64,000 nt of DNA, taken from assembly GCA_964610975.1 (NCBI GenBank), contig CAZSYN010000003.1:195955-259954 (forward strand), written 5' to 3'. This stretch comes from an uncultured Phycisphaeraceae bacterium. Its GTDB lineage: Bacteria; Planctomycetota; Phycisphaerae; WQYP01. Positions 17,950 to 64,000 of the stretch are shown here, one piece after another. The position numbers and the translations under genes were made by a program. The notes below the pieces were generated by a model. That model did not search any database. It had not been told where the DNA came from and was given only the letters and a program-made list of their open reading frames with translations. Within the stretch, counting starts at the first letter, position 1; every line of letters begins with the position of its first letter.

Positions 17950-20900
17950 TCAGGCCAGCAGAAGTTCGCTGCCATCGCCCTTAGCATTAACCTTATTGAG
18001 AAGGCTTGTGCCAAGCACGGTCTTGACGTTATTACCCGCGGTGGCAAAGTCACCGTCAGGGCCGGCCGAGTAACCGGCCGAAATCGTGCTGCCGTTGATC
18101 AAGCCGTTATTACGGTTACCGTTAACCGTGATCGTATTGATGCTGCCGTAGAAAAGCGTGCCATTGCTGCGAAGCGCATTGATCTCCGCCGGAGTGGCAA
18201 GCGGAGTCAGGTCAGAAACCACAGTCTGAGTATCAGCAAAGGCAAGGGCAAGGCCGCTTGATATGGAGCTGTTATCCATCACACCGCTAATACTCGCCGA
18301 TGTGATATTGCCGCTTGCCGCAATCACGGAATCAGCCACAAGGCCACGAACATTCAGCGTCGCCAGATTTGCCAACGCCTGAGAACCCGTCCCGCTGACA
18401 CCAACCTGAATCAGCGAATTGCGAACATCCCCATTGACCGTCATTGTGGAAACATTTCCACCGGCAAGGATCACGCCGCCGGTCATGCTCTTGGCGCTGA
18501 AATTGGTAATATTGCCATTGGTACTCAGCGAACCATCAAAGGCCTTGCTGAATGTACCTGACGTGAGCGTACCGATCATAAAGATTACCGAGCCGGCGGC
18601 AACATTACCGGCTACAGTCAATGAGGCGTTGCCCGCCAAGCTTATCGTTGAATTATTACCAATGCTGCCGAAGTCTTTGCTGATGTTAACGGTAGTGAGC
18701 GTACCAGTTCTTCCGGCTACAAGATCGCCATCCATATTACCTGATATGGTGATCTTATTAAGATCATTGGTCTGAATTTCAGCGGTATCGGCCACATTAC
18801 CAGTGATGGTAATGGTGGTTGTTTTTCCTGTATTACGAATAAGAGCACCAGCCAGCACGTTGCCGCGAATAGTCATGGTACCAACATTACCACCGACAGT
18901 GATGTCTGAATCGCCCAGGTTCTTCGCAATCGTCAGCGTAGTAAGATCGCCGGTCACTCCGAGCGTCGTGCCATCATTAACGCCGCCGTTGATGTTGATC
19001 GTACCGGCATTACCGCCGACGATGATAGCATCGTTCTGGCCGAGACCCGTTGTGCCGGAAACCGTCAGCGATGTCAGAGCACCGGCGATATCAAGCGTCA
19101 CGTCATCCGCAATATTGCCGACAACGCGAATCGTTCCCGCATTACCATCAACATTGATCACTGAGCCTTGTCCGATACCCGCAGCGCCGGAAACAGTCAG
19201 CGTGGTGAGATTGCCGGTCACATCAAGAACGGAATCATTTGCCATAACGCCAGCGATATTGATTGTGCTGGCGTTGCCGCCAATGGCGATACGCGAATTT
19301 GTTCCCAGACCAGCCGCCCCGAGCAGGTTCAGCGATGCAGTCAGGTTACCCACGATGGCGATTCTTGAACCAGTGACCATTGCGCCCGTGATACTAATTG
19401 TGCCGGCGTTACCGCCAACACTGATCACATCATCCTGGCCGATGCCCGCCGCACCCGAGACCGTCAAGGTATTCAGGTTGCCCGTTACGCCAATGGACGA
19501 ATCACTATCAATCGCGCCGCTGATGCTGATCGTTCCGGCATTGCCCGCAACGCTGATGATATCCTGCTGGCCAAGACCCGTGCGGCCAGAGATCGTCAGT
19601 GATGTCAGGTCATTGCCGAATATGAATCGCACGTCATTTGCCACATTACCCGATACGCGCACGTTGCCGGCCTTGCCGTCCACATTCACGCGTGTACCCT
19701 GGCCGATGCCCGTTGATCCGGACACCGTTAGCGATGTCAGCGCGCCGGAAATATCCAGCAATGCGTTCGTACCAATGTTACCTGTGATGTTGATCGTTCC
19801 GGCGTTACCGCCGACGCTGATCGTGTCATCACCTACACCGGCCGCGCCAAGTATGCTCAGCGTCGTCAGGTTGCCGGTCACATCAATCGTCGAGTTATCC
19901 GCCATCGCGCCGCTGATGCTGATCGTTCCGGCGTTGCCCGCAACACTGATGATATCCTGCTGGCCAAGACCTGTGCGGCCGGAGATCGTCAGCGATGTCA
20001 GGTCATTGCCGAATATGAATCGCACATCATTGGCCACATTACCCGATACGCGCACGTTGCCGGCCTTGCCGTCCACATTCACGCGTGTACCCTGGCCGAT
20101 GCCCGTTGATCCGGACACCGTTAGCGATGTCAGCGCGCCGGAAATATCCAGCAATGCGTTCGTACCAATGTTACCTGTGATGTTGATCGTTCCGGCGTTA
20201 CCGCCGACGCTGATCGTGTCATCACCTACACCGGCCGCGCCAAGTATGCTCAGCGTCGTCAGGTTGCCGGTCACATCAATCGTCGAGTTATCCGCCATCG
20301 CGCCGCTGATGCTGATCGTTCCGGCGTTGCCCGCAACACTGATGATATCCTGCTGGCCAAGACCTGTGCGGCCGGAGATCGTCAGCGATGTCAGGTCATT
20401 GCCGAATATGAATCGCACATCATTGGCCACATTACCCGATACGCGCACGTTGCCGGCCTTGCCGTCCACATTCACGCGTGTACCCTGGCCGATGCCCGTT
20501 GATCCGGACACCGTTAGCGATGTCAGCGCGCCGGAAATATCCAGCAATGCGTTCGTACCAATGTTACCCGTGATGTTGATCGTTCCGGCGTTACCCGCAA
20601 CGCTGATGATCTCATTCTGGCCAAGACCGTTGCGGCCAGAGATCGTCAACGAAGTCAAGTCACCACCGAAGTTGAATGCAACATTATCATCAACATCACC
20701 CGCTACGCGGACAGTGCCGACATTGCCGGTCACTGCCAGGTTCGTATAGGTTCCGACATCACCGTTGATAGTCAATGTGCCAAGTGTGCCGGAGATCGTG
20801 GTAACAAAATAATTGACAAGTGTACCGTCAAGGATGCTTCCGCCGACGGTCATATTCGTGAGGTTCTTCGCGCTGATGCTGCCGCTGGCACCCAGGTTAC

Positions 20901-23900
20901 CCGCATTGGTGCGCGAACCTTTTGTAACATTGATGTTGGTAATGGTGCCTTGAAGCGCGCTGATATCGCCGTTCATGTAGCCGTTGTTCACAATGATGCC
21001 GGCGATATTACCGTTCGTGCTTGTAATAGAACCGGTCAGGTCGCCATTGGTGATGGTGATCGTTCCGATATTCTGAGCAGCCGCAAGCGTACCGGAGAAG
21101 TTATTGCCGCCAGGTGTTGTGCCGCTGAGAGTCAGCGTGCCAAGCGAGCCGCCAACAACAATATCGCCGCTCATCGCGGCCGTGGCGCCGTTGATGGTAA
21201 AGGTTGTCAGGTTGCCGGTAACCGTCACATCGCCCGAAACCGGGCCGTTGATCGTGGCTGTTTTCAGATTGCCATCAACAGTCAATGTACCGAGCAAACC
21301 GTTTTTATTGATGACCAGAGAGCCGACATTGCCGTGAACTTCAAGGGTGCTTGCCGCGCCGATACCCTGGGCAATTGTAAATGCGCCATTGATATCGCCG
21401 TCAATTTCAAAGCTGGCCGCGGCATTCAACGCGCCATAAATGGTGATGCTGCCGGCGGCCACAGAACCGAGCAATTCAACTGTACCGGTCACATTGCCTG
21501 TAAAATTAGGCAGATTCTGTCCAAAAGTCAGGCTGTTGACAAGCCCCTGGGAAATCAAGGTACCAGCAAAGCTTCCCGTGACATTAAAGGTGCCGATGTC
21601 GCCGCTGTTACCCTTTGCCCAGAAGAGCGAGGTAGCATCAACATTTCCCTTGATCAGAACCGAGTTGAGGCGACCGGCGACCTCAATGTCCACGCCTGTC
21701 GTATTGCCATTGACAGTCAGGCCCGCCAGCGTACCAGTGATAAGTTTCAGAGCGCTAAGGCTGCTGCCGCTGGTAATTGTGCCGACAGAGTTAACAAAGT
21801 TGAATGTCGTATTGCTGATGCCGTATGCGGAAATATTGCCGCAATCAAGACCACCGAACTCAGATTCAGTGATCATGCCGGAGGTCGCCAAGTGGTAAGA
21901 GTTCACGTAAGAAGTGAGTTCAGCAACTACTCTTGCCGAATAATTGGCAGGGTTCAGAGCTTTGCCATTGTTGGTCGTCGTCAGCGAACCGACTTTCATG
22001 CCGCTGAAGTCCACACCGCAAATGCCATAGCCTCCGGCGGAAACGCTCTTGAGAACGCCGTCAGCCAGACTACCGATAGAAACTCCAATAATACCAAATC
22101 CGTCAGCCGACACAGTGATCGTGCCAATATCCGCGCCGGCAATCCACGAACCGATGATGCCGCCCTTGCCGGTAATATTGATACTCTCAATTTCATAATC
22201 AACGTTTGCGACACCTATGCCATCAGCGTCCGGCAGAGTGATTTGGGACGCATCATAACGCGACATGGCAAAATCAGAGAGAACCGCCACGGTGGCATCC
22301 ACAATTGAGCCACCATTGGTCAGCGTGATATTCTTGATTTTGTTCTTTGAGACCACCACACCACGGATATCCGCGTTGTTACCTGTGATGTTGTAGATGG
22401 TGCCGCCCACAAACAGGCCGCACTGGGCATAAACGCCATCGCCGGCCGAAGCGATACCCTCGCCAATGTTGATTGAGTAAAGACCGCCGGTAATCATGAT
22501 CGGCGCGTCAAGACCTTCAAAGACAAGCGGATTGTCTTTGTTATCCGGATTGAGCGAAATAGTACCGACTGATCCGGTCGCAATGATGGCGCCGCAGGTC
22601 TTGGCAACAGAAAGCGTCCCGATGCTGCCTGCCAGCACACCATTATGCTGCTTATAGAACGGATAGCTATTTGAAATTACATCGCCCTGATCAAGACTGA
22701 CGCCCGTGAATGTGCCATAGGCAACACCCAAGTTGCCGCTGGTGGTCAGAGCGCCAATATCTTTGGCGTTGATGTTGACGATATCGCCGCCGGTCGTATT
22801 GCTAATGGTATTGATGACGCTGCCGGTTCCGGTGATTTTGAAGACATCCGTGCGGAAGCTGCCGCCGATTGTAATGGAATTGTAAGTATTGGTGGTAACA
22901 GTGCCGTCAGTATTACGAACGCGTGAAGGCGGATTGTAATTAAAGCCATTGGCATCAGCCTGAAGCGCAGCGCCAGAGCTGGTCATAATGATTTCGCCGA
23001 TTTCGGCAGTCTGTCCGACGTTGTTATTGCCGGAAGTTGACGTCACATTCAGGCCAATAGCATTGGTTTCCACGCGAATAATGGCCGAGCCACCCGCGCC
23101 GTAGATGCCGTATGTCCAGATGCTCAAGGTTGCGCCGGCAAGGGGATCGGCAACCACTGTTGAGAAGGTGATTTTAGCACCGGAATCATCATTGATAGCC
23201 GGAATTTTGTCCGTGCCCACGACATAGGTGATGCCGCCAAGATTTGAAGTCTGGCCTCGGTTAAACGCAACATCCTGATAGACCCAGCTTGTGGTATTCA
23301 GGTGTATATAGCGGACATTACCGCCTGTGTTGGTGGTAATACGCGGGCCGCCGCCGTTGAGGGTACCAAAGTCACCGGTCACTTCAATCAGATCAATGAT
23401 GCCGTCGCGTCCGATATTGTCCGTATTGACAGAGAACTGCGTATCAGCAGTGCCCATCGTCATCTGGCCGGCGCGGATAATGCCAATGGAGGTGGTGGTG
23501 AAATAACGTCCACCCATTTCGCCGCCGCTGGCAAGAGTCTCAATGTTGCCGCCAGCACGGATATAGGCGCCCATGAAGCTGCCGGTCGCCTGAACCAGGC
23601 CAACCTTGCCGCTGACATCCATCACTGGACCATATTCAATAGCTCTGATATCGCCATTCACATACAACCGACCGATGGTGCCGCCGACCACCGCGCCAAG
23701 ATCACCGGCGGTGACCTTAATGGCAACACCATTAAGTTTTACGACATTGCGCTGAGTGATATCCAGGTATTGGCTGCCATAGTAATAGGTATCATAGTTA
23801 TACGCACCAAGGTAGGTGTAGCTGATACTAAGAATGGCGCCGCCGGCCACAATTGCACCGACATTACCGGTGGTAAACACAAAACCGCCGGACTGTTCAT

Positions 23901-25557
23901 CAACAGTGCCGGTATCCGCCGCCAGATCTTCCGTATCGCCGTCATTGTTCAGATCAACGGCTTCGCTTTGAATGGCAATATCGCCGCCGACGCGGATACC
24001 ACCGATTGCCTGATCACCCAAGCCGCTGACAGTCAAGGTATATGTTGTATATCCCTGCTGGGTCGCATTGGTGCCGTCAAGCGTGTAGTCGCCGCTTGTA
24101 GCCAAAATGATGTAGTAAAGGCCGGGATTGGTTGCGGTATAGGTGATATCCGAACCATTGCGGCTGATGGCGACTACGCGGCGTTCAGAATCCATAATGC
24201 CGTAGTAACCATAATATCCGCCGCCGGCACTGACTGTAATCGTCTGGTTATTGGTCAAAGATACAGCATACACATCGCGATTATTGCCGGGACCATTACT
24301 TGCATTACTGATATTGCCTGAAATCGTCACGCTGCCGCTGGCAGAGCCGCCCAGGTAATAGGCGCTGTCAATTGAGTTATTGGCAAAGATATCTGTTGAG
24401 GTATAAGGCAGATAACCGGTCCTGAACAAATTCAACGCGTTGATATTGGGAGTTGCGGTTGCTCCGGCAGCATAGCCATTGGGATCTTCAAAAGCCCAAC
24501 TGGTGTTGGCCAAAGAAGGCGCCGCGGCATCGTGATCAACCGTCAACGACGCGGCCATCATGCCACCGACTTCAATGTTGCCGATCGTGCCACCAACATG
24601 AATATCCGTCGCGGTGTTATAGTAAAACGCATTTGAACTATCTGGCGGATAAGTAGTGAGATTCGTACCAATGCTGGTTTTGACCAGCAGGCTGCCAAGA
24701 TCGCCGGTAACTGAAAAATTATCGGTCTGAGTTGAGCCAAAACCGCGCACATCACCCGTAATCAGCCAGCCGCAATAGAACATGCCGATTGAACCGGCAA
24801 TATTCACCTGGCCAGTGACGGTGCCATCCACCATGATTTTGCCGATGGCTGTGCTATCATCCACTGTATCTGAAGTGACGTAAATACCAGCCTGAAAACC
24901 ACCTGCGTAATTGGTGTTAATCCATGTGGCAGTGCCGTTGGTATCATCAAGCCCACTTGTATCCGTGATCAGCGTGTTGCGCGGAACAATATTCGTAGCA
25001 TCACTCAGATAGCCAATGTAAACACTACCGGCTGCTGCGGGAGTTGCTGTTTTGAGGTCATTATCTTTGGTGTATAGTTCATAACCAGTGCCATAAAGAC
25101 TTGTACCGGAAATGGTCACGATGCAATTTTCAGTCGCATTCTTGATCACTATGGCATATAAATTTGATTTGGCATCCTGGAAGACATAGTCAACATTATC
25201 AATCTTAATTGTAGCTGTCCGTTTGGTCGGATCGCCGGCCGCAACAACATCAACGGCATCATTAAGATCAATCAGTTGCGTTCCGCCGGAATTGGCGAAA
25301 ACAAGATCCCATTCAAGATTGGTATTACCCGAATCCGTAACAGATACGGTAACGCCGTGGCCAGCGAGGTCGGTAAAGCGCACGAGACCATCGCCCTGAT
25401 AGGCCGACATCATCAGGCGAGGCTCCATCTCCTCAATGTATGCCTGATGCAAACGTGTATGCGTGTTTCGGTTAAGCAACTTGGCTGACAAAGCCTGGTT
25501 CGGAGCACAATAGCTATAACCCTTAAGGCAACGCCACAAACGATTCAAGATGTTCAC
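17950..25557 (-). CDS. Giant secreted repeat protein (about 2,500 aa) with an N-terminal LEPR-type motif, a PPC-like domain and beta-helix-like ~44-aa repeats
   Basis: One uninterrupted ORF. The N-terminus contains IEEMEPRLMMSA (LEPRxLLSA-like). A region NNRDVYAVSLTNNQTITV...GLYYIILATSGDY...YTLTVSG resembles a pre-peptidase C-terminal (PPC) domain. Hundreds of G(N/D)(I/V)-x-hydrophobic repeats follow. I prefer the GTG at 25557, preceded by GGAG, as the start. The track start 25626 is a TTG and the first ATG is at 25428. Confidence 0.85.
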   Translation of the reverse strand: MNILNRLWRCLKGYSYCAPNQALSAKLLNRNTHTRLHQAYIEEMEPRLMMSAYQGDGLVRFTDLAGHGVTVSVTDSGNTNLEWDLVFANSGGTQLIDLNDAVDVVAAGDPTKRTATIKIDNVDYVFQDAKSNLYAIVIKNATENCIVTISGTSLYGTGYELYTKDNDLKTATPAAAGSVYIGYLSDATNIVPRNTLITDTSGLDDTNGTATWINTNYAGGFQAGIYVTSDTVDDSTAIGKIMVDGTVTGQVNIAGSIGMFYCGWLITGDVRGFGSTQTDNFSVTGDLGSLLVKTSIGTNLTTYPPDSSNAFYYNTATDIHVGGTIGNIEVGGMMAASLTVDHDAAAPSLANTSWAFEDPNGYAAGATATPNINALNLFRTGYLPYTSTDIFANNSIDSAYYLGGSASGSVTISGNISNASNGPGNNRDVYAVSLTNNQTITVSAGGGYYGYYGIMDSERRVVAISRNGSDITYTATNPGLYYIILATSGDYTLDGTNATQQGYTTYTLTVSGLGDQAIGGIRVGGDIAIQSEAVDLNNDGDTEDLAADTGTVDEQSGGFVFTTGNVGAIVAGGAILSISYTYLGAYNYDTYYYGSQYLDITQRNVVKLNGVAIKVTAGDLGAVVGGTIGRLYVNGDIRAIEYGPVMDVSGKVGLVQATGSFMGAYIRAGGNIETLASGGEMGGRYFTTTSIGIIRAGQMTMGTADTQFSVNTDNIGRDGIIDLIEVTGDFGTLNGGGPRITTNTGGNVRYIHLNTTSWVYQDVAFNRGQTSNLGGITYVVGTDKIPAINDDSGAKITFSTVVADPLAGATLSIWTYGIYGAGGSAIIRVETNAIGLNVTSTSGNNNVGQTAEIGEIIMTSSGAALQADANGFNYNPPSRVRNTDGTVTTNTYNSITIGGSFRTDVFKITGTGSVINTISNTTGGDIVNINAKDIGALTTSGNLGVAYGTFTGVSLDQGDVISNSYPFYKQHNGVLAGSIGTLSVAKTCGAIIATGSVGTISLNPDNKDNPLVFEGLDAPIMITGGLYSINIGEGIASAGDGVYAQCGLFVGGTIYNITGNNADIRGVVVSKNKIKNITLTNGGSIVDATVAVLSDFAMSRYDASQITLPDADGIGVANVDYEIESINITGKGGIIGSWIAGADIGTITVSADGFGIIGVSIGSLADGVLKSVSAGGYGICGVDFSGMKVGSLTTTNNGKALNPANYSARVVAELTSYVNSYHLATSGMITESEFGGLDCGNISAYGISNTTFNFVNSVGTITSGSSLSALKLITGTLAGLTVNGNTTGVDIEVAGRLNSVLIKGNVDATSLFWAKGNSGDIGTFNVTGSFAGTLISQGLVNSLTFGQNLPNFTGNVTGTVELLGSVAAGSITIYGALNAAASFEIDGDINGAFTIAQGIGAASTLEVHGNVGSLVINKNGLLGTLTVDGNLKTATINGPVSGDVTVTGNLTTFTINGATAAMSGDIVVGGSLGTLTLSGTTPGGNNFSGTLAAAQNIGTITITNGDLTGSITSTNGNIAGIIVNNGYMNGDISALQGTITNINVTKGSRTNAGNLGASGSISAKNLTNMTVGGSILDGTLVNYFVTTISGTLGTLTINGDVGTYTNLAVTGNVGTVRVAGDVDDNVAFNFGGDLTSLTISGRNGLGQNEIISVAGNAGTINITGNIGTNALLDISGALTSLTVSGSTGIGQGTRVNVDGKAGNVRVSGNVANDVRFIFGNDLTSLTISGRTGLGQQDIISVAGNAGTISISGAMADNSTIDVTGNLTTLSILGAAGVGDDTISVGGNAGTINITGNIGTNALLDISGALTSLTVSGSTGIGQGTRVNVDGKAGNVRVSGNVANDVRFIFGNDLTSLTISGRTGLGQQDIISVAGNAGTISISGAMADNSTIDVTGNLTTLSILGAAGVGDDTISVGGNAGTINITGNIGTNALLDISGALTSLTVSGSTGIGQGTRVNVDGKAGNVRVSGNVANDVRFIFGNDLTSLTISGRTGLGQQDIISVAGNAGTISISGAIDSDSSIGVTGNLNTLTVSGAAGIGQDDVISVGGNAGTISITGAMVTGSRIAIVGNLTASLNLLGAAGLGTNSRIAIGGNASTINIAGVMANDSVLDVTGNLTTLTVSGAAGIGQGSVINVDGNAGTIRVVGNIADDVTLDIAGALTSLTVSGTTGLGQNDAIIVGGNAGTININGGVNDGTTLGVTGDLTTLTIAKNLGDSDITVGGNVGTMTIRGNVLAGALIRNTGKTTTITITGNVADTAEIQTNDLNKITISGNMDGDLVAGRTGTLTTVNISKDFGSIGNNSTISLAGNASLTVAGNVAAGSVIFMIGTLTSGTFSKAFDGSLSTNGNITNFSAKSMTGGVILAGGNVSTMTVNGDVRNSLIQVGVSGTGSQALANLATLNVRGLVADSVIAASGNITSASISGVMDNSSISSGLALAFADTQTVVSDLTPLATPAEINALRSNGTLFYGSINTITVNGNRNNGLINGSTISAGYSAGPDGDFATAGNNVKTVLGTSLLNKVNAKGDGSELLLA
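19511..20590. repeat. Near-identical 393-bp (131-aa) tandem repeat, about 2.75 copies, inside the giant CDS
   Basis: The string atcgcgccgctgatgctgatcgttccggc recurs at 19511, 19904 and 20297, giving a period of 393. Copies 2 and 3 appear identical by eye. The protein unit GNAGTINITG...DDTISVG repeats three times and is itself made of three ~44-aa sub-repeats. Confidence 0.9.
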
Positions 25558-25922
25558 ATGAGTCTCCGCACTACGACGTTCACTAATCTCAGAAGAACTT
25601 AAATAAGCACAGAAAAATGAGAGCAAGATCGCCCGACAAGGCTATCTTGATGTGTTGAACTTAAGTAGTTTCGACAACGTCCAGATAATTGTCAAGAAAA
25701 CCGGAATATTTTCCTGAAAGCATTTATTGAGATCTTAATACTTGACATTCAACCGCCCACGACGGGCATAGTCATACGTGTAAACAACTACCTTATTAAC
25801 AGTATTTGTTGCTCAACATAACACCCTCAATAATAAATAAATCCCTCACCATTCATACAACATTGATACGAAATCATCATCAAGCACTTGCAGGAACAGG
25901 GATTAAGCCTGACGATAAGGGG

Positions 25923-60213: not shown

Positions 60214-60337
60214 AACCAGGATTATAGCAGATCATCCCATATTCGTCTGCCATGCCATTTGCCAAGCCCAGAAAAGAGCAAAAAACGGGGACGCAGCTAG
60301 TTTTGACTCTGTCTTTTGTTCATGATATCTTTCGATT

Positions 60338-61036
60338 ATGGCAAGACACGCGCGCATAGCACCGGGCGGATGGGTTTACCACGTTGTGAACCGATCCGCG
60401 GGACGTTTCAAAATGCTTCAAAGCCAGAAAGATTTTCTGGCCTTTGAGCAGATCATGGCCCAGGCGCAGGAACGTTTTCCTTTGCGAATTTTGTCTTATT
60501 GCCTGATGGGTAACCATTGGCATTTTGTGGTTTGGCCGGAAAAAGACGGCGATCTGACTTCCTATTTTCGCTGGCTCACACATACCCACGCCATGCGCTG
60601 GCGCGTGGCGCATAATACAGTGGGATACGGACATCTTTATCAGGGACGTTTTAAGAGTTTCCCGGTTCAGGGTGGCGCATCATTTCTCAAGGTATGCCGC
60701 TATGTTGAACGCAACGCGCTTTCGGCCGAACTGGTCAAAAATGCAGAAGACTGGCGCTGGAGCAGCCTGTGGGTTCGCAACAACGGCACGCCTGAACAAA
60801 AAGCTCTGCTGACGCCCTGGCCGATAGAACAACCCAGAGACTGGCTAGTGCGTGTCAATGAGATGATGACCGCCAAAGAAATTACTCGCTGGCGCCAGAG
60901 TTTATTGCGAGGGAGTCCATTTGGGGACGACGAATGGACGCGCCAGAGTTCAATTGAATTAGGCCTCGAGTACACTCTGCGCGATGAGGGCCGCCCCAGA
61001 TCGATTAAAACGGGGACGCAGCTAGTTAAAAACTAG
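60338..61036 (+). mobile_element. REP-associated tyrosine transposase (RAYT, IS200/Y1 HUH family)
   Basis: 232 aa. The HUH motif is in LMGNHWHFVVWP and the catalytic Tyr region is CRYVERNALSAELV. The gene is flanked by a 20-nt direct repeat, aaacggggacgcagctagtt, at 60283-60302 and 61008-61027. The downstream copy forms a perfect hairpin. Confidence 0.85.
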
Positions 61037-61050
61037 CTGCGTCCCCGTTT
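61008..61050. repeat. REP-like perfect hairpin overlapping the RAYT 3' end
   Basis: aaacggggacgcagctagtt-aaa-aactagctgcgtccccgttt (20-bp stem). It is followed by a perfect 14-bp tandem duplication, cccgtttctttacc x2, at 61044-61071. Confidence 0.9.
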
Positions 61051-61070
61051 CTTTACCCCCGTTTCTTTAC

Positions 61071-62323
61071 CCTGGTACTGGTACAACTGCTGATCCATAC
61101 GTTTTTACATTGCCACAGACAGGATCGTTGCGAATCTGGACGTTGGATGGTGATAAGAGCCGGGATTCTCGGAGCTTGCAATCCAGCGATGAAGGGAATT
61201 TCATTGCCGGCGATGGGTGGATAGATGCATCCAAACTCTTTAAGGATGGCAAACGCACCATCACGCTGTATGTGGAGGCGGTGAAGTCTGATGCCGGCGC
61301 CAAAGAGACCAAAGTGTCGATGAAAACAACCGGCGCTGCTGATGCGGATGCCACATCCGATACAGTCAAACTGACTGTGCAGAAGTTTACTTATACGGCG
61401 GATGAGATCGAAAAAGCGTTGGCGGCCGATCCTGGCTATGGAAAGAAAGTAGGATTTTTAATTCAAACACCTAAAGATTGGGGTACATTAATTATTAAAA
61501 TTGATACAGGACGTGGAACACTGAATGTAAATTTATTTAAGGGTGTTACAATTGGTGACGCCGCCATAAGCCTTGAACAAGCCAAGCAATGTGCGATCGA
61601 TGCACTTCGAGCGTGGGCATCAAAATCTTTGAGTTTCTTTCCAGGTGCGAATTATACATTCCTTGGAATCGCTCGCGAGTGGGCAAGCAATGGAATGGAT
61701 TACGGCGCGACAGTAAAGAACGGTGAGGATGCCGCACAGTCCTTAGGTTCGACTCTTGATTTCCTGTATTTTTTCTCGGATCAAAATGGTACAGAATCTG
61801 TTGGGTACAAGTCGAACGATGTTCCTTATTTGCTTTGTTGGATTTATACAGGTATTGGGAATATTACAAAAAATCAAATTTTACAAAAATCGGTCTTGCT
61901 ACTTCATTTAAAGAAGGGACTGTTCCAATTGCGGCGAAGCTAGGAATGAATGAAGTATATTGGGAATCCCGTGTGGTTGGAGGAAAAGCTGGGCGTTATC
62001 CTGCAGAGGATCAAACGCATCACTTTGCAGCTTATTTTCAAATTGGTAGTTTCTTTGGTAATGACGACAATACATTGAGAGATGCTCTGGTCCGCACGAA
62101 CGATCTTGGAACAGATAAGAGCAAGCCCGAGTTATATTTCTGGAGAAGTAATCCAGGTGATTATTTTCTCGGTCTTCTTGCTGCTGACCTAGGACATATG
62201 TGGAATTCGCATCCAGGATATATTGGGGCAACTGTCACATCACTCTTAAAAGCCTCAAGACAGACAGGATGGTCCTATACTGGACGTACCGATTTTGTAT
62301 ATCCCGTAGATTATTGGAAATGA
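61071..62323 (+). pseudogene. 5'-truncated, frameshifted gene for a polymorphic-toxin-like protein (Ig-like pre-toxin segment + novel C-terminal domain)
   Basis: There is no start codon. The reading frame PGTGTTADPYVFTLPQTGSLRIWTLDG... is homologous to GDGTAENPYITQLPSGSLRIWTKDG at 63925-63999, so upstream sequence is missing. ORFs 61110..61943 and 61835..62323 join if one A is added to the A6 run at 61868-61873, giving ...GIGNITKKSNFTKIGLATSF... The sequence is AT-rich from about 61400. Confidence 0.7.
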
Positions 62324-62481
62324 CAGCGCTTTATAAATTGCTAGTCGTGTATATAGACAATTTACTTTAGTGCGCTATTGACTTGGTAATATTTTAATAT
62401 GTGCAGAGATAATTCATACAGATTCTATCGCAGTATAGTGCAGGGTGCTTGCTGACAACATTGATCTTATAGGAGCGGTTT

Positions 62482-62871
62482 GTGCAGAGTATAGAGTATA
62501 GAAGGCCTAAGCGTATTCGAGTTACTAACAACAATCTGTTAATAGCTGCTGGAGCAACAAGTGCTATCGCCGTATTAATTAATTGCGTACCACAAAACTA
62601 TCTGTTGGTGGATATAATTTTTGGCAAGTTCGATTTGTACTCTTTGTACATATTCTATGCTTGTGTTCGACTGATACCTCCGTTTTTCGCAGTAATCTTA
62701 AGTCTTGCTTCTCTTTTTTGGCATGTCGGAACTAATCCGGATGCTAAGCACAAACGAAGACTCGGGTTGTTGTATCTTTTTTTGTCTTTGTTAGCGTATG
62801 TTATTCGTTGGAATGAATTGCCTCGTCTACTGCATATCTTGTATGTCACAATATCCTGGATGATACGATAG
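62482..62871 (+). CDS. Small 3-TM membrane protein, immunity-protein candidate 1
   Basis: 129 aa with three hydrophobic helices. It is a paralog of 63158..63556 with the same architecture (PDAKHKRRLGLLYLF versus KDEKHKKMLALTFIIF). It lies directly downstream of the toxin-like C-terminal domain. Confidence 0.6.
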   Translation: MQSIEYRRPKRIRVTNNNLLIAAGATSAIAVLINCVPQNYLLVDIIFGKFDLYSLYIFYACVRLIPPFFAVILSLASLFWHVGTNPDAKHKRRLGLLYLFLSLLAYVIRWNELPRLLHILYVTISWMIR

Positions 62872-62872
62872 T

Positions 62873-63145
62873 CCAGATCTTGACCAGACGCATCATTTTG
62901 CTGGTTATTTTCAATTTGGAGCGAATCACGGAAATAGTAATATTGCATTGAAAGTCGCTTTAAAGAAAACAAATGATTATCCTTCGTTAAATAATTTAGG
63001 AGACTATTGTTTGGGAATTTTGGCCGCTGATCTTGGTGCTATGTATAAAACTCATCCAGGATATTACGGAGCAGAGATCGCGAGACTATTGAAGTTATCG
63101 TATTCTGATGCTTGTAAAGTAACTGGAAGAACTATTAATCCTTAA
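62873..63145 (+). pseudogene. Orphan 3' fragment of a second toxin C-terminal domain
   Basis: My translation PDLDQTHHFAGYFQFGANHG...GDYCLGILAADLGAMYKTHPGYYGAEIARLLK aligns with PAEDQTHHFAAYFQIGSFFG...GDYFLGLLAADLGHMWNSHPGYIGATVTSLLK at the end of 61835..62323. The homologous frame opens only at 62864, right at the stop of the preceding gene. It has no plausible start or RBS. Confidence 0.7.
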
Positions 63146-63157
63146 TGGGTATAATAA

Positions 63158-63556
63158 GTGTCTATGCTTGAATATCACAATATAAAGAGTGTGCAACTTA
63201 CGACAAGTAAATGGTTGATGATCGCATCTCTAACAAGTGTAACGGCATTTGCAACTAGTTGCTTGCCGGGAGATGTTTTAATGATCTATTGCTTTGGCTT
63301 TTTTAATCTTGGGATCATACTCACTCTATGGGTTTGTTCAAGATTATTTATGCCACCAATTGCACTCTTGTTAACTCTCATTGCCTATATAAGAATACGT
63401 CGTTTTAAAGATGAAAAACACAAAAAAATGTTAGCTCTTACTTTCATTATTTTTTCTATAATGGCCTGTTTATTTTCATTGAGAGAGATACCAGATGCCG
63501 TAAGATCTGCAGGTGGGTTATTTCATGATTTAATTAATGGCAATTTTTGGCGCTAA
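63158..63556 (+). CDS. Small 3-TM membrane protein, immunity-protein candidate 2
   Basis: 132 aa, a paralog of 62482..62871. It follows the orphan toxin fragment after a 12-nt spacer. Confidence 0.6.
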   Translation: MSMLEYHNIKSVQLTTSKWLMIASLTSVTAFATSCLPGDVLMIYCFGFFNLGIILTLWVCSRLFMPPIALLLTLIAYIRIRRFKDEKHKKMLALTFIIFSIMACLFSLREIPDAVRSAGGLFHDLINGNFWR

Positions 63557-63664
63557 ATCGTCCTATACAAAAACTCTTGCCCAGGGAAAATGGCCGTGCA
63601 GATTGAAGGAAAACAGGATAGCATAGCCGAAATGATGTCATCAAAATACGACTTGTCTGATTGA

Positions 63665-64000
63665 GATAATACCATAGAGGAGACATCGGGCAAGATCATT
63701 CAGGCCAACGATAACGACCGCGATGGCAATAAGATTCTGGATTACGCACAGGGGTATAAAAAGACGGTCGACGAGACGGGAGCCTTTACGAACGTGGCCA
63801 GCGGTGTAACCTTCACGCCCATCACGATCACGATACCAGAGGGTGTGGATATCAGCACGGCCAAGATATCGTTGACCTATGACGCATCCGATCCGTCGGC
63901 ACTGATACGCAGCGGAGATGGTACGGCCGAGAATCCGTATATCACGCAGTTGCCGTCAGGATCGCTGCGGATATGGACCAAGGATGGAATGTCCTTCGAG
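63665..64000 (+). CDS. Partial gene for a large surface/toxin-family protein (continues beyond the window)
   Basis: My translation DNTIEETSGKIIQANDNDRDGNKILDYAQGYKK...TPITITIPEGVDISTAKISLTYDASDP...NPYITQLPSGSLRIWTKDGMSFE stays open to the window end. The start is unclear: an in-frame ATG at 63590 is separated from this frame by a TGA at 63662-63664. GC content returns to the host level here. Confidence 0.5.

Follow-up and report, generated by a model that had tools for sequence, protein, structure and literature searches.

A probable degenerate array of polymorphic-toxin cassettes with a rare C-terminal toxin domain in an uncultured Phycisphaeraceae bacterium

Overview of the locus

We identified, near the 3' end of a 64,000-nucleotide stretch of DNA from an uncultured Phycisphaeraceae bacterium (contig CAZSYN010000003.1, positions 195,955 to 259,954; hereafter, the window), an AT-rich, 2.5-kb island that is probably (about 75%) a degenerate array of polymorphic-toxin cassettes, in which one toxin copy is dead, a piece of another has been displaced, and both candidate immunity genes are intact. 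An initial annotation, made from the letters of the sequence, had described the locus as polymorphic-toxin-like. This reading is supported by the position of related domains at the tip of Rhs proteins, the C-terminal placement of the domain, linked partner genes that co-vary with it, and a drop in G+C content. Judged from its sequence, the toxin domain is an undescribed and rare superfamily that is also employed as an Rhs toxin tip.

The best described comparison is with the Rhs/YD-repeat polymorphic toxins, which have orphan tip-immunity cassettes and a pre-toxin/toxin boundary marked by PxxxxDPxGL (Zhang et al., 2012; PMC3482391). The island resembles them in having a variable, AT-rich C-terminal tip followed by a candidate immunity gene, and a displaced, start-less fragment with a candidate immunity gene of its own. 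Furthermore, the same toxin family occurs directly after the DPxGL of the RHS core in other organisms. However, Pfam and NCBIfam models detected no YD/RHS repeats or RHS core in the window's fragment; the segment upstream of the toxin domain is a different repeat module, specific to giant proteins of the Planctomycetota type. The tip family also falls outside the Pfam and NCBIfam toxin families, the window has no main gene, and the first toxin copy is itself a pseudogene.

Organization and base composition of the island

The anatomy of the island was read from a six-frame translation of positions 60950–64000, which recovered every element listed in the initial annotation where it had been placed. 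All of these elements, like the mobile element at the left boundary, lie on the forward (+) strand. The first is a pre-toxin remnant (61071–61388; 106 aa), a 5'-truncated piece of a repeat module, which leads into the C-terminal toxin domain (CTD; 61389–62323). Next come two intact genes for polytopic membrane proteins, imm1 (62482–62871) and imm2 (63158–63556), with a start-less remnant of a second toxin domain (the orphan; 62873–63145) between them. A second fragment of the repeat module (63665–64000), also start-less, runs off the end of the window.

The G+C content falls sharply exactly at the boundary between the pre-toxin piece and the CTD (position 61389). It is 0.53 over positions 1–60000 of the window and 0.51 in the pre-toxin piece, then 0.42 in the CTD, 0.39 in imm1, 0.36 in the orphan and 0.35 in imm2, and returns to 0.53 after position 63665. 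The initial annotation had placed the onset of AT-richness at about 61400 and counted 21 G+C in 60 letters in a line at 62581, a count that we reproduced; the segment as a whole ranges from 0.35 to 0.42.

The toxin copy in the window is dead. The frame from 61071, which reads PGTGTTADPYVFTLPQTGSLRIWTLDG..., stays open up to 61943, and a second frame runs from 61835 to a stop at 62323. The two overlap across 61835–61943, and the addition of one A to a run of six (the A6 run; 61868–61873) fuses them into a single protein with a CTD of 311 aa. This run is the likeliest site of a -1 frameshift splitting the CTD into the open reading frames (ORFs) 61110–61943 and 61835–62323. Blocks conserved in the family lie upstream (YLLCWIY) and downstream (TVPIAAKLGMNEVYWES and DQTHHF) of the shift, which shows that it genuinely interrupts a single gene. 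The 5' truncation and frameshift first proposed for this copy are both real, and together they mean that no toxin can be produced at the locus.

Over 61043–63616, short-read (Logan) assemblies from further sequencing runs match the window with 100% identity and have the same A6 run. The shift is reproduced in L053 (SRR9674393), which was seen in four samples, and in L054 (SRR9674389); L051 and L052 confirm the stretch from imm1 through the orphan to imm2. Sequencing error as the origin of the frameshift is ruled out by this agreement among independent assemblies. All four assemblies stop at approximately 61021 and/or 63616, the edges of the island, which suggests that the flanks are repeated in the genome or variable among strains.

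The product of imm1 has 129 aa and is translated from a GTG preceded, 8 nt upstream, by AGGAG; that of imm2 has 132 aa (130 aa from an ATG at 63164). Their 30% identity (E = 5e-15) bears out the diverged paralogy that had been proposed. Each protein has 3–4 hydrophobic segments, so that the size of the three-helix membrane protein initially described for imm1 is correct and its helix count is not clearly three. The orphan starts 1 nt past the imm1 stop codon, lacks a start codon and comprises the C-terminal core module of the CTD only. Its 90 aa are 45–54% identical to the CTD tail and contain the motifs DQTHHF...GDYCLG...PGYYG; in its DNA, a 38-nt stretch is 84% identical to 62009–62046. Thus, the start-less homologue had been correctly recognized, as had its position before the second membrane protein gene. 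Both membrane proteins are candidate immunity proteins, imm2 for the toxin that the orphan once belonged to.

The repeat module upstream of the toxin domain

The pre-toxin remnant and the fragment at 63665 derive from the same type of module, as the initial annotation had seen. The translation of 61071–61160 matches that of 63914–63990 with 53–61% identity over 26–30 aa (E ~1e-5 within the window). The first copy follows the pattern ...PY.F.LP..GSLRIWT.DG...TLYVEAV..., and the second reads IEE..GKII.ANDNDRDGNKILDYAQGY...ISLTYDASDP...GSLRIWTKDG. A scan of one genome per species identified 19 loci with the pre-toxin segment, mostly in Planctomycetota metagenome-assembled genomes (Thermoguttaceae, Rhodopirellula and Planctomycetaceae). 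In some of these proteins, which range in size from 900 to >5000 aa, the module recurs every ~215–230 aa with the consensus DLDIDSDNN...PGKI..VNDGD.DGDGIPDFADGF...FTPL.L..P...D...A.L.F.YSASDP...G.LRIWTKDG...TLYVEG. The tails beyond the last module are mutually unrelated, and two have a weak match to a DUF900 hydrolase.

Compared with this template, the first copy in the window retains only the last third of the module and the fragment at 63665 begins mid-module; both are therefore 5'-truncated. The frame at 63665 begins downstream of a TGA, and the first possible start within it is a GTG at 63794. The gene proposed to start near 63665 shares the module, as claimed, and looks like a start-less fragment rather than a gene start. 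We also observed a short ATG-initiated frame at 63591–63664 (MAVQIEGKQDSIAEMMSSKYDLSD); the TGA that closes it is in register with the module fragment downstream. The DLSD*DN at the tail of this short frame is faintly like the module start DLDIDSDNN, and the short frame and the fragment may once have been parts of one gene that has since decayed.

The toxin domain family and its use as an Rhs tip

A word-seeded search of 5.8e9 proteins with the CTD returned three relatives only. A profile search of 1.84 billion (1.84e9) representative proteins yielded 157 matches at E <= 1e-3, including 43 at E <= 1e-30. Some members are standalone proteins of ~230–370 aa with a Met exactly at the domain boundary (M..YT..D[LI]R..L). 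Others carry the domain at the extreme C-terminus of 825–1523-aa proteins with FN3, PKD, CARDB, NIDO or dockerin domains, and in P0025 and P0021 it lies behind an LRLWK module of the window's type (…LSFSYEANDPS…TGKLRLWK…). Furthermore, at least seven strong hits (P0012, P0019, P0023, P0027, P0029, P0040 and P0041) have the domain only a few residues after the end of an RHS core (...YDPxTGxW...DPxGL). The curated Rhs core model TIGR03696 scores above its cutoff directly before the domain in P0023; the DPxGL position was located by eye in the other six. One of the latter, P0012 (511 aa), joins an HD/Ppx-GppA-like N-terminus to the RHS core end and toxin tip, a fusion that probably reflects either a truncated Rhs gene or a chimera created by gene calling or assembly.

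We also identified a sister family whose common ground with the toxin family is limited to the C-terminal 94 columns (hhalign probability 99.1%, E = 1e-18), exactly the part kept by the window's orphan. Sister domains are found directly after TIGR03696 in L041, L042 and 13 of the 56 family members. The shared core reads D-Q-x-H-H-F-A-x-x-F-x-x-G ... N-x-G-D-x-x-L-G-x-x-A-A-x-x-G, and the sister family shows no variation at its D, H, H, N and D. In the toxin family, the invariant polar residues are R74, Q209, H212, D239 and D258, and the near-invariant ones T122, D124, D208, H211 and N255. The DQTHHF, GDYxLGxxAAxLG and PGY motifs, which the initial annotation had listed for a C-terminal domain of ~300 aa, are common to the CTD and the orphan. 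The Rhs-type sister tips (L038–L048, alignment A5) also have a near-invariant Cys near the tip start (DCxALA) and a second one 2–3 residues from the C-terminus (…LC[KR]). The two residues may be joined by a disulfide, which would be in keeping with action outside the cytoplasm.

The CTD, imm1, imm2 and the sister tips had no match in Pfam, NCBIfam, PHROGs or PADLOC. Sequence searches of the PDB with single proteins and with profiles gave no match for the CTD family, and tblastn against phages found nothing. The DQxHH motif is also absent from the 2012 toxin catalogue (PMC3482391) and from a 2022 toxin-discovery preprint. These searches and the fold comparisons described below agree with the initial statement that the domain could not be assigned to any known toxin family. 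The single plasmid match fell within a histidine kinase (E = 0.4), and we dismissed it as a chance hit.

Genes linked to the toxin domain in relatives

In loci recovered from metagenomes and genomes, the genes that follow the toxin domain of relatives form six candidate partner families, which are unrelated to each other and encode, in every case, exported, anchored or polytopic membrane proteins. An N-terminally anchored family occurs in L030 (as two tandem copies), L050 and L055, where the gene overlaps the toxin stop by 4 nt. A lipoprotein-like family is present in L027 and L035, and a secreted HEAT-like family in L032 and L034. Two lipoprotein families follow the Rhs-type sister tips of L038–L048, some with further RHS repeats after them, and L049 encodes a partner with three transmembrane (TM) segments. 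The extracytoplasmic or membrane nature of all of these families agrees with the earlier suggestion of an effector that acts on the envelope or membrane.

In three of four families, toxin modules that are mutual-best matches also share a partner family; the window's CTD and orphan, with imm1 and imm2, are one such case. The expected co-variation of the small proteins with the toxin subclade is thus found among the relatives, although imm1 and imm2 themselves have no homologues. An in-frame stop interrupts the family member at L035:189-992, whose lipoprotein partner is nevertheless intact, the same pattern of dead toxin and live immunity as in the window. In L022, the gene after a standalone member (1127–1756) encodes a 209-aa protein with the motif Y.D..G..TIG.G, which may resemble phage-type lysozymes.

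Structure model and comparison with Lipocone tips

An AlphaFold model of the CTD based on a 36-sequence alignment had a mean predicted local distance difference test (pLDDT) score of 81 and a predicted template modeling (pTM) score of 0.87; an earlier 5-sequence alignment had given an unusable model (pLDDT 40). The predicted fold is mostly helical, with a small beta element near the N-terminus. Foldseek found no neighbor of the model in the PDB (best E = 0.7, TM <= 0.21) or in the viral BFVD (TMt up to 0.27). In the BFVD search, a DUF6973 protein was the only small named domain to appear, with an E value (2.1) no better than noise.

Lipocone toxin tips are soluble, helical domains whose targets are lipid head groups or lipid II (Burroughs et al., 2025; PMC12419801). 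Their families include Min-Wnt/DUF6973, prok-SAA, prok-TelC, CapCone and ClaspCone; for example, TelC cleaves lipid II outside the cytoplasm (PMC12419801). The immunity proteins of these tips are all transmembrane proteins or lipoproteins, one 4-TM type included, and the tips have three conserved residues around the aperture of the cone: a His of helix H2, a Glu of H3 and an Asp of H4 (PMC12419801). The CTD is likewise a predicted soluble helical tip with transmembrane or lipoprotein partners, and has a helix with an Asp four residues before a His and an aromatic residue (DQTHHF versus DKxxHF in Lipocone). The order along the sequence is also similar: a His-helix, an Asp-ended helix and an Asp-started helix with a Gly near its end. 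The putative counterparts in the CTD are H212 with D208 at -4, D239 ending the next helix, D258 starting the following one and G269 near its end. However, the CTD lacks the canonical Glu of H3 and the 'D...N' pattern of H4.

We compared our profiles by hhalign with alignments of five Lipocone families (YfiM-1, ClaspCone-2, CapCone-1, prok-SAA and Min-Wnt) built from the source data of PMC12419801. The P values were 0.01–0.5, versus 0.02–0.66 for reversed controls, and the best ones (0.01–0.04 with CapCone-1, ClaspCone-2 and YfiM-1) were anchored only on the D-x-x-x-H-F helix. True Lipocone pairs mostly reached P values of 1e-5 to 1e-11, and two true pairs also failed (0.41 and 0.006). Because our values are on par with those of reversed controls, membership in Lipocone is not demonstrated. 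DQxHH sequences are absent from the family lists of PMC12419801, and TelC in the PDB was recovered by neither sequence nor fold searches.

Proposed history and mode of action

The toxicity, immunity, site of action and chemistry discussed here are those that we infer for the system. We propose that the AT-rich, 311-aa toxin tip would have been gained horizontally and was once fused to the repeat module of a giant protein that was secreted or displayed on the surface, with imm1 after it. An older cassette would have been pushed downstream, its survivors being the last 90 aa of its toxin domain and its own immunity gene, imm2. Later, the carrier gene lost its 5' end beside the Y1-transposase element, and the toxin domain acquired its frameshift. 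The intact imm1 and imm2 may still protect against relatives with live versions of the toxin. As the toxin copy is a pseudogene, the immediate biological role of the locus is limited to this retained immunity. The initial idea of a silent cassette reservoir is a guess, because there is no full-length gene upstream, the two module fragments appear by eye too diverged in DNA to recombine with each other, and imm1 and imm2 lack homologues.

The core of the superfamily would consist of two helices bearing DQxHHF and NxGDxxLGxxAAxxG. The invariant polar residues favor an enzyme over a pore-former. The exclusively extracytoplasmic partners, together with the Cys pair of the sister family, point to action in the periplasm or at the membrane surface of the target cell, probably a rival bacterium. 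The likeliest substrate would be membrane-proximal, such as a lipid head group or a lipid-linked cell-wall precursor, and membrane-anchored immunity proteins could neutralize the toxin there. More tentatively, the DQxHHF/NxGD domain might found a superfamily with an unseen fold and a new envelope-directed enzyme activity, common to soil-bacterial Rhs proteins and giant planctomycetal surface proteins, or else be a very divergent, unrecognized branch of Lipocone with lipid head groups or lipid II as its cleavage substrates. Polymorphic toxin tips have already yielded new enzymes and antibacterial targets, and this family could reveal a new fold and possibly a new form of envelope attack. The locus also documents cassette turnover on a new type of carrier, the repeat module of giant Planctomycetota proteins.

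Several observations weigh against this interpretation. The polymorphic-toxin features that we found are a C-terminal tip on several architectures, a sharp boundary and an orphan fragment with its own candidate immunity gene; a full-length, secretable main gene that shares its pre-toxin region with the orphans was not found in the window. Indeed, the full-length gene with the GSLRIWT module that the initial annotation had called for does not occur in the 61 kb upstream (window 1–61000). Neither imm1 nor imm2 has a homologue among 5.8e9 proteins, and their pairing with the toxin therefore relies only on position and paralogy. Several standalone members, for example P0002 in L001 and those of L023–L026, lack both an evident partner gene and a signal peptide. 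Furthermore, the chemistry of the CTD is a guess because its fold has no known neighbor, and the link to Lipocone, which is statistically unsupported, serves only as a mechanistic lead.

Alternative interpretations

The alternative that survives best, although we consider it unlikely, is a locus of the same type whose effector inserts into membranes or forms pores (an ionophore), like colicins A, E1 and Ia or CdiA-CT(EC93), and is countered by polytopic immunity proteins. Proteins with 3–4 TM segments are the classical immunity type for pore-forming colicins. In the window, too, a small protein with 3–4 TM segments is encoded right after a helical toxin domain, and imm2 likewise has 3–4 such segments; the core helices are also rich in small and hydrophobic residues (HHFAAYFxxG and GDYxLGxxAAxxG), and the CTD model is mostly helical. 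However, the ten invariant or near-invariant polar residues, which include a D-x-x-H-H cluster and 3–4 Asp, are typical of active sites and atypical of pore-formers. The partners of the relatives are mostly soluble periplasmic lipoproteins or anchored globular proteins rather than intramembrane ones, and the CTD has no fold or sequence similarity to these toxins, Foldseek returning no match to colicin pore domains.

Less probable still is that the CTD is an enzymatic or binding domain of planctomycetal surface proteins, with a role in polymer degradation or adhesion, and that the small membrane proteins are unrelated neighbors. This would account for the FN3/PKD/CARDB/dockerin/NIDO-type surface proteins among the carriers, the standalone members without partner genes, and the failure to match any known toxin family or fold. 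It would not account for the position after the DPxGL of the RHS core in many independent proteins of two subfamilies, which is specific to toxin tips, nor for the translationally coupled, co-varying partner genes. The orphan fragment and paralogous partner gene in the window and the sharp fall in G+C at the domain boundary also speak against it.

We give slightly less credence again to a locus of the same type whose toxin acts in the cytoplasm (a nuclease or NADase) and whose membrane proteins block import instead of binding in the periplasm: the standalone members without signal peptides and the general occurrence of His/Asp-rich motifs in nucleases would suit it, but all six of the six candidate partner families are exported, anchored or polytopic, the sister-family Cys pair (DCxALA ... 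LC) suggests a disulfide outside the cytoplasm, and no nuclease or NADase family was matched.

Flanking regions

The 61 kb upstream of the cassette array contain housekeeping genes, including those for PolA, SecA, an AcrB-type pump, ComEC, AccC and NuoH-like and HisF-like proteins. This region also has a 2557-aa ORF on the reverse (-) strand (17950–25626), whose only Pfam trace is a weak, partial HTH_PafC match. The ORF is unrelated to the toxin module by tblastn, and several long ORFs on the opposite strand overlap it.

The left boundary of the island is formed by a Y1-transposase element (60280–61053), composed of a transposase gene, inverted repeats and a hairpin. The gene (60338–61036) encodes a 232-aa tyrosine transposase of the IS200-like Y1 type (Pfam PF01797, E = 3e-13, 50.3 bits versus a cutoff of 23); its score with the NCBIfam model REP_Tyr_transpos (NF047646), 48.9 bits, is under the cutoff of 80. 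Inverted 25-nt repeats (AAAAAACGGGGACGCAGCTAGTTTT) bracket the gene at 60280–60304 and 61029–61053, and a perfect 20-bp hairpin at 61008–61050 closes the element, which the 5' truncation point of the toxin gene abuts. Where the transposase hairpin meets the toxin fragment, the 14-nt unit CCCCGTTTCTTTAC is duplicated in tandem (61043–61070). This unit is single-copy in the independent assembly L053, which aligns with a 14-nt offset.

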